The position numbers and the translations under genes are program-made. From assembly GCA_965613025.1 (NCBI GenBank), contig CBFDUE010000003.1, positions 3,363-67,362 on the forward strand: a DNA stretch of 64,000 bases, written 5' to 3'. Origin of the DNA: an uncultured bacterium. GTDB lineage: Bacteria > Desulfobacterota > DSM-4660 > Desulfatiglandales > JALVMZ01. This document shows, one piece after another, positions 32,934-33,333 of the stretch (the stretch's first letter is position 1; every line of letters starts with the position of its first letter). The notes below the pieces were generated by a model, which saw only the letters and a list, made by a program, of their open reading frames with translations, was not told the origin of the DNA and did not search any database.

Positions 32934-33122
32934 GACATTCTCCTTTTTAAAATGAGTAATTTATTCTTTTACTTTTATTTATAATAACAGATTTTGGAAA
33001 GTCAATCAAATACTTTAAAAAGAGGAAAATTTAAATTATTTTATGCTACTTAAGATCTAATCTAAAAAATTGATGAACATTTCATAGATTCTTTTGCAAG
33101 TTTTCCATATAGATGCATTGAC

Positions 33123-33274
33123 GAGAGCTTTGAATTTTTCAAAGCTCTCATAAAAAGCTGTAATTTGGGGTTATTTTAAGTTAATTTTTGGGGGTCTGGT
33201 CTCCGCCCCAGAGGGTCATCCGACCCGGAGGGGGGTATAATCCCCAGCGTGAAAAGGGGTTATACAAAGGTCTC
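33123..33274 (+). mobile_element. MITE-like element, copy A (152 bp)
   Basis: Termini are GAGAGCTTTG (33123-33132) and CAAAGGTCTC (33265-33274), inverted with 1 mismatch. Flanked by the direct 6-bp repeat ATTGAC (33117-33122 and 33275-33280). About 90% identical by eye to the reverse complement of 36326-36478. Confidence 0.75.
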
Positions 33275-33333
33275 ATTGACGTATATATTAAATCTTGTAA
33301 TAGATAGATGATATATCAGCTCAGGGGGATATC

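Follow-up and report, generated by a model that had tools for sequence, protein, structure and literature searches.

The definition of MITEs for prokaryotes has been reviewed (PMC10969869). Described families, among them Correia/NEMIS of Neisseria, Chunjie of Geobacter uraniireducens and QMITE1/2 of Coxiella, are shorter than 500 bp, carry short terminal inverted repeats (TIRs) and target duplications and contain no transposase gene. Their targets are A+T-rich and intergenic, their transcripts are predicted to form stable stem-loops, and Chunjie (178-235 bp) and QMITE include size variants with the same ends (PMC10969869). Rickettsia palindromic elements (RPEs), which are about 150 bp long, can sit in frame in protein-coding genes and add a peptide while leaving the ORF intact (PMC10969869). 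The 64-kb window studied here, that is, the whole stretch of DNA analysed, contains two copies, A and B, of a repeat that shares all of the listed properties of prokaryotic MITEs. We assign a probability of roughly 85% to the reading that these repeats represent a MITE family, i.e. non-autonomous cut-and-paste DNA transposons. TIRs, a 5-6-bp duplication, dispersed polymorphic copies and the lack of coding capacity correspond to a MITE as defined in PMC10969869. The kind of element is well known while the family itself is undescribed, with no sequence similarity to described families seen in Rfam, plasmids, phages or the literature on termini. It differs from other prokaryotic MITEs in that one of its ends is a perfect 27-nt palindrome with a second inverted terminal repeat, in that its copies are strictly co-oriented with transcription and in that no parent IS was found. 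Similar to REP/BIME and ERIC repeats, the elements are structured, transcribed intergenic repeats between operon genes that may affect mRNA. REPs, palindromes of 20-40 bp associated with RAYT genes, are not known to carry TIRs or target duplications; the elements described here, in contrast, possess TIRs, target duplications and insertion polymorphism.

The window is made up of densely packed housekeeping genes with a G+C content of ca. 39%, including aspS, hisS, mfd, tyrS, the tol-pal operon and genes for a NiFe hydrogenase and a fumarate reductase. AspRS relatives show 95-100% identity within the clade while the next nearest sequence is 67% identical. The putative host is uncultured, sulfate-reducer-like and of Desulfobacterota type, and belongs to a phylogenetically isolated lineage. 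GC skew and AT skew, calculated in 2-kb bins across the whole window, flip sign with gene strand at values of ca. ±0.2. Coding strands are G- and A-rich, and the MITE sense strand is biased likewise. A Pfam scan and the gene tables contain no transposase or integrase domain in the window, in agreement with the first-pass annotation for transposases. Three ORFs of 129-241 aa (19424-19975, 44575-45300 and 51726-52115) are without a Pfam match at E ≤ 1e-5, and a tRNA/tmRNA scan returned no matches. The region 28544-31028 encodes an inositol-1-phosphate synthase followed by a fused NTP-transferase/CDP-alcohol phosphatidyltransferase. Together these enzymes form the di-myo-inositol-phosphate synthesis pair of (hyper)thermophiles, and their presence suggests that the host may be thermophilic.

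Copies A and B are long-form versions of the same element and the only copies present in the window. Copy A (152 bp, 33123-33274, forward strand) is located in the divergent spacer between an HTH_17 gene (32751-32933, reverse strand) and a CLC channel gene (33334-35541, forward strand) and has the orientation of the CLC gene. Copy B (153 bp, 36326-36478, reverse strand) is located in a cpoB/ybgF-like TPR gene (35533-36510, reverse strand), the last gene of the tol-pal operon. Copy A and the reverse complement of copy B align end to end with 91.5% identity over 153 columns, 12 mismatches and one 1-nt gap (E = 3e-58), close to the ca. 13 mismatches and one indel counted by eye in the first-pass annotation. 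The shared termini are GAGAGCTTTG…CAAAG(C/G)TCTC. The left end is GAGAGCTTTG in both copies, the right end of copy B (CAAAGCTCTC) is its perfect inverted copy (10/10) and the right end of copy A (CAAAGGTCTC) matches at 9/10 positions. The left TIR is followed by a 3-nt loop and an inverted copy of the TIR, forming a 27-nt terminal palindrome (33123-33149 on the forward strand in copy A) of the structure GAGAGCTTTGAA-TTT-TTCAAAGCTCTC. This palindrome is present in all subfamilies, is exact in both copies and does not occur elsewhere in the window, and the number of matches expected in shuffled sequence is 0. A 41-nt core identical between the two copies has no further occurrence in the window either. 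Inspection of the flanks shows that copy A is bracketed by the direct repeat ATTGAC on the left (33117-33122) and right (33275-33280). Copy B is bracketed by AATAAT (ATTATT in element orientation) at 36320-36325 on the element's 3' side and 36479-36484 on its 5' side. The 10-bp TIRs, perfect in B and with one mismatch in A, the perfect 12-bp stem with its 3-nt loop and both flanking hexamers are thus exactly as first annotated.

Filled and empty sites indicate that the family has evidently been active recently in genomes of the host lineage. Exact direct repeats of 4 bp or more immediately adjoin 12 of 17 complete copies, compared with 5 of 272 mismatched control pairs. Repeat lengths in the 17 complete copies are 6 bp (eight copies), 5 bp (six), 7 bp (two) and 4 bp (one), and the copy in locus L020 has no recognisable duplication. 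The flanking repeats are 80% A+T, compared with 60% for the window, differ at every site and are not part of any longer repeat. For presence/absence comparison we used relatives with ca. 94-95% nucleotide identity to the window, which yielded three clean filled/empty pairs in which the window represents the empty allele, with duplications of 6, 5 and 5 bp. The empty site TATCTT (35534-35539) is filled by a 153-bp copy in L024 (L024:9818-9970, TATCTT/TATCTT). The empty site AAAAT between mfd and a surA-like gene (13442-13446) is filled by a 211-bp copy in L027 (L027:3024-3234, AAAAT/AAAAT), and the empty site AAGGA downstream of aspS (4882-4886; TCCTT on the other strand) by a 164-bp subfamily-2 copy (L027:11806-11969, TCCTT/TCCTT). 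L027 belongs to the same MAG as L001 and L013. CLC and cpoB are convergent and share 9 bp at their stop codons (35533-35541), and the TATCTT site falls within this overlap. In L024 (9810-9980) both stops are rebuilt from the terminal G/GA of the element, with TAG changed to T|GA on one strand and, on the other, AGA TA|G retained, so that CLC and CpoB end at the same position and the CLC residues are unchanged.

Copy A is absent from L024, L025 and L026, relatives with ca. 94% identity. Compared with a simple pre-insertion site, the empty allele (ATGCAT|TATTAAATC) is short by 9 nt (TGACGTATA; L024:7560-7580 against 33117-33290 of the window). Two other small indels distinguish the lineages in this variable spacer, and the 9-nt shortfall may be a further, unrelated indel or the footprint left by excision. 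The empty allele of copy A is not a clean pre-insertion site. The target duplication proposed in the first-pass annotation is real, yet its length is 5-6 bp in the clean pairs and 4-7 bp when judged by flanks alone rather than strictly 6 bp. The MITE interpretation already offered there gains support from the further copies, the differing duplications and the empty sites. Static conserved regulatory repeats, an idea also considered, are contradicted by the filled/empty pairs.

The family comprises 23 distinct insertion sites, identified by a profile search of the window, all related loci and two later contigs. A 23-nt core pattern matched one species-representative genome, the MAG of an uncultured 'Desulfobacteraceae bacterium' (GCA_964440775.1), and seven metagenome contigs. 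Searching with the 51-aa read-through peptide of the element returned six small spurious ORFs, the contigs of which were added as loci. An exhaustive protein-level search with this peptide found only 4 clusters, and protein-level searching is thus unable to enlarge the family further. Blastn searches of plasmids and phages with the element gave no match, the terminal palindrome had 0 matches in viral contigs, and Rfam yielded no hit, either for the whole window at the gathering threshold or near copy A at E ≤ 1. Literature searches on MITEs in related taxa and on the terminal sequence returned nothing relevant. Given the few peptide clusters and the lack of plasmid, phage, viral and Rfam matches, the family appears confined to the host lineage.

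The interior of the element is a mosaic of optional hairpin modules that are gained, lost and exchanged between copies, even at a fixed locus. Element lengths range from 119 to 211 bp. The first ca. 45 nt and the last ca. 32 nt are common to the size classes while the internal hairpin modules differ. The ca. 153-bp class contains a 33-nt central hairpin that is missing from the ca. 120-bp class, and a 135-bp class carries a partial deletion between CCGACC repeats. In subfamily 2 (145-164 bp) a long hairpin of ca. 75 nt, with or without an 18-nt mini-hairpin, takes the place of the A+T-rich segment. In the 211-bp copy at L027:3024-3234 the subfamily-2 long hairpin and the 33-nt central hairpin known from subfamily 1 occur together, and this copy would be either a near-ancestral full-length MITE or a recombinant of the two subfamilies. 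TIRs are kept in 15 aligned copies and in subfamily 2, with scattered single-base changes and losses of 1-2 bases at the right end as the exceptions. Two forms of the palindrome exist, distinguished only by an inverted 3-nt loop: most copies have GAATTTTTC, and three have GAAAAATTC (L016:987-1013, L005:3731-3757 and L004:77-103, compared with 33123-33149 of the window). This difference looks like a hairpin flip/flop and not like three independent substitutions.

Copy B is inserted in frame within the signal-peptide coding region of cpoB/ybgF and is co-oriented with the gene. The interrupted product consists of MIMKKGILILL, 51 aa contributed by the element and then LLIFLLLCLSC…, and the ORF is stop-free through copy B (MIMKKGILILL-RALNFSKLSERSCNYGLFKVNFWGSGLRPRGSSDPEGGVTPSVKRGYAKLS-LLIFLLLCLSCAYDQ…). 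Deleting copy B together with one ATTATT gives MIMKKGILILLIFLLLCLSC, an ordinary signal peptide, and distant YbgF homologues (≤39% identity) also have plain signal peptides at their N-terminus. The sequence contains no in-frame start codon downstream of copy B in cpoB, from which we infer that CpoB is either read through the element or not made. The element tail KRGYAK combined with LSLLIFLLLCLS looks like a rebuilt positively charged region followed by a hydrophobic core, and export of CpoB may survive the insertion. The element-encoded …KRGYAKLS tail, joined to the hydrophobic residues left behind it, would restore a signal peptide that is greatly extended at its N-terminus, and both read-through translation of copy B and continued CpoB export are predicted from the sequence. 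The relative L022 carries copy B at the same site as a 120-bp form with the upstream (5') repeat mutated to ATCATT, and its protein P0008 represents an in-frame read-through of this form. Over the 120 shared bases the two orthologous copies differ by 1 substitution, compared with 92% identity for cpoB and 97% for pal. Copy B is an older insertion and is retained in two lineages. The occurrence of 120-bp and 153-bp forms at this locus indicates that the 33-nt module changes in place, by deletion, insertion or conversion between copies. A G+C-rich hairpin (GGGGAGAAGAGTTCTCCCC) between pal and cpoB (36522-36540) has a terminator-like score only when read antisense to the operon, and it is mostly deleted in L022.

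Similar to RPEs, copy B sits in frame in a protein-coding gene, and the 153-, 135- and 120-bp forms as well as the 33-nt module are all multiples of three. The family differs from RPEs in having clear TIRs and target duplications, a single gene-internal insertion among its 23 sites and an open sense frame in no more than 8 of 19 copies. Six of these eight copies were found through ORFs, and the family is therefore not RPE-like in general. Subfamily 2 copies contain 3-4 stops in the sense frame, and in most copies every frame is interrupted by stops, the longest read-through being 51 codons without a family match. A conserved encoded peptide was rejected as an explanation because most of the copies found independently of ORFs contain stops.

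Copies are retained exclusively along the direction of local transcription and their sense transcripts fold better than their antisense transcripts. All 12 copies located between same-strand genes are co-directional with the flanking genes (two-sided binomial p = 0.0005), a bias stronger than usually reported for bacterial MITEs; the remaining copies, located between divergent or convergent genes or at the ends of contigs, are uninformative. Copies A and B, separated by 3 kb, point in opposite directions, each along the strand of its own gene, indicating that the bias follows transcription and not the direction of replication. Sense RNA is more stable than antisense RNA in 17 of 17 copies, with a mean difference of ca. 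8.6 kcal/mol. Z-scores relative to shuffled sequences are -3.4 and -4.0. All 15 aligned copies retain the 5' palindrome as well as a 3' hairpin (GUGUAACCCC/GGGGUUAUGC). These observations, together with the near identity of the L022 orthologue noted above, would be explained if the element were above all an RNA module with an orientation-dependent function, such as a hairpin cassette of REP/BIME or ERIC type that stabilises or processes mRNA or couples translation, and if it had spread by transposition and were now kept by selection on the sense transcript. Such a function would be added to the MITE mechanism and would not replace it. We regard it as unlikely overall. Compensatory covariation is seen in 0 of 30 pairs (RNAalifold) because the copies are too similar to one another, leaving conservation and one-sided, pair-preserving (G·U-compatible) changes as the support for the hairpins. 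The G>C bias of the element's sense strand equals that of ordinary coding strands in this genome, and better sense folding may therefore be a compositional by-product. Rfam contains no match, neither copy A nor copy B contains a terminator-like or convincing promoter-like site, and the sites are polymorphic between close relatives as expected for neutral recent insertions, unlike conserved regulators. Selection against harmful antisense insertions can by itself produce an orientation bias, and we read the bias in this way, with an RNA-level role being possible. A weak sigma-70-like hybrid site (9/12, not above chance) directed toward the CLC gene spans the right junction of copy A (33261-33289), where the element end supplies the -35 box and the flanking sequence the -10 box.

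The strict orientation bias would also be accounted for if the elements were palindrome-associated IS200/IS605-type derivatives or REP-like sequences moved as single-stranded DNA by a tyrosine HUH transposase (TnpA/RAYT), and the perfect terminal hairpin at one end and the strong single-strand structure are in keeping with this. We consider it very improbable since the elements have true TIRs and show 5-6-bp target duplications in three filled/empty pairs, which IS200/IS605 elements and REPs are not known to make. In addition, the left flanks are not conserved and no tetra- or pentanucleotide is conserved 5' of the copies, the orientations of A and B follow transcription instead of replication, and a Y1 transposase is encoded in no locus according to the gene tables. 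The inverted arrangement of A and B around 3.05 kb with two genes could alternatively represent the ends of a composite transposon (33123-36478) carrying the CLC channel gene and cpoB. This explanation has next to nothing left in its favor and is refuted by the empty site of copy A with unchanged gene order: L024 and L026 lack copy A with the CLC gene in place, and L024 also keeps cpoB. The two copies moreover have separate duplications (ATTGAC/ATTGAC and ATTATT/ATTATT), the outer flanks share none, and cpoB is the normal last gene of tol-pal with copy B lying within it. A more speculative and rather doubtful extension is that orientation and sense hairpins reflect a domesticated RNA role, for example in protecting or processing polycistronic mRNAs of a probably thermophilic host, or transcription-coupled insertion, with a mobilising enzyme that perhaps lies outside the catalogued IS families, as the lack of a detectable partner would allow. 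If so, the 51-aa insert in the CpoB signal peptide would be translated and tolerated, or even used. The orientation, modular and cpoB findings leave the basic classification of the family as MITEs unchanged.

MITEs of this family would be mobilized by a transposase encoded elsewhere in the genome that binds the 10-12-bp terminal repeats. Its active site would most likely be of the DDE type, with three catalytic acidic residues (Asp-Asp-Glu). The enzyme would excise or copy the element and join it to a target cut with a 5-6-nt stagger, and gap repair after joining would create the target duplication. The second, inverted terminal repeat at the left end, part of the 27-nt palindrome, is probably an extra transposase-binding or hairpin-forming site. 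The insertions that survive are the harmless ones: they occupy intergenic positions or stop and start codons, with TAG/TGA stops regenerated by the terminal G/GA, and one lies within the cpoB signal peptide without breaking the frame. Copies are kept only along local transcription, which suggests selection on the transcribed sense strand. The gene tables of 27 related loci contain no transposase domain, and a search for TIR pairs 1-2 kb apart in the window and ca. 200 kb of related loci recovered only the MITEs themselves. The IS with the same ends predicted in the first-pass annotation was thus not found in the window, related loci, viral contigs, plasmids or phages, and the term non-autonomous, which we retain, refers to the absence of coding capacity. 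With the partner element missing from these sequences, a trans-acting transposase and its family are conjecture.

Elements of the IS1634 family have 'five to six bp AT-rich' target duplications and poorly conserved ends (PMC2266710). The elements described here resemble this family of IS4-related DDE transposons in duplicating 5-6 bp of 80% A+T target. The likeness concerns duplication length and composition, no IS1634-type transposase or full-length element with GAGAGCTTTG ends having been found, and an IS1634-like parent is only a lead. Duplications of roughly 6 bp are also typical of the ISDol1 group (ISNCY) and of IS481.

The insertions have practical consequences for the analysis of this lineage and can serve as strain-level presence/absence markers. 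They also illustrate, in a natural setting, that a compact genome keeps only those insertions that do no harm, as seen in the stop codons regenerated by element ends and in the in-frame signal-peptide insertion kept by two lineages. The contig ends of L002, L004, L007, L009 and L019 fall within element copies, indicating that the element breaks short-read assemblies of this lineage. Where a duplication ends in AT, the junction AT|G creates an ATG from which gene callers call spurious small ORFs beginning with MRALNFSKLS….
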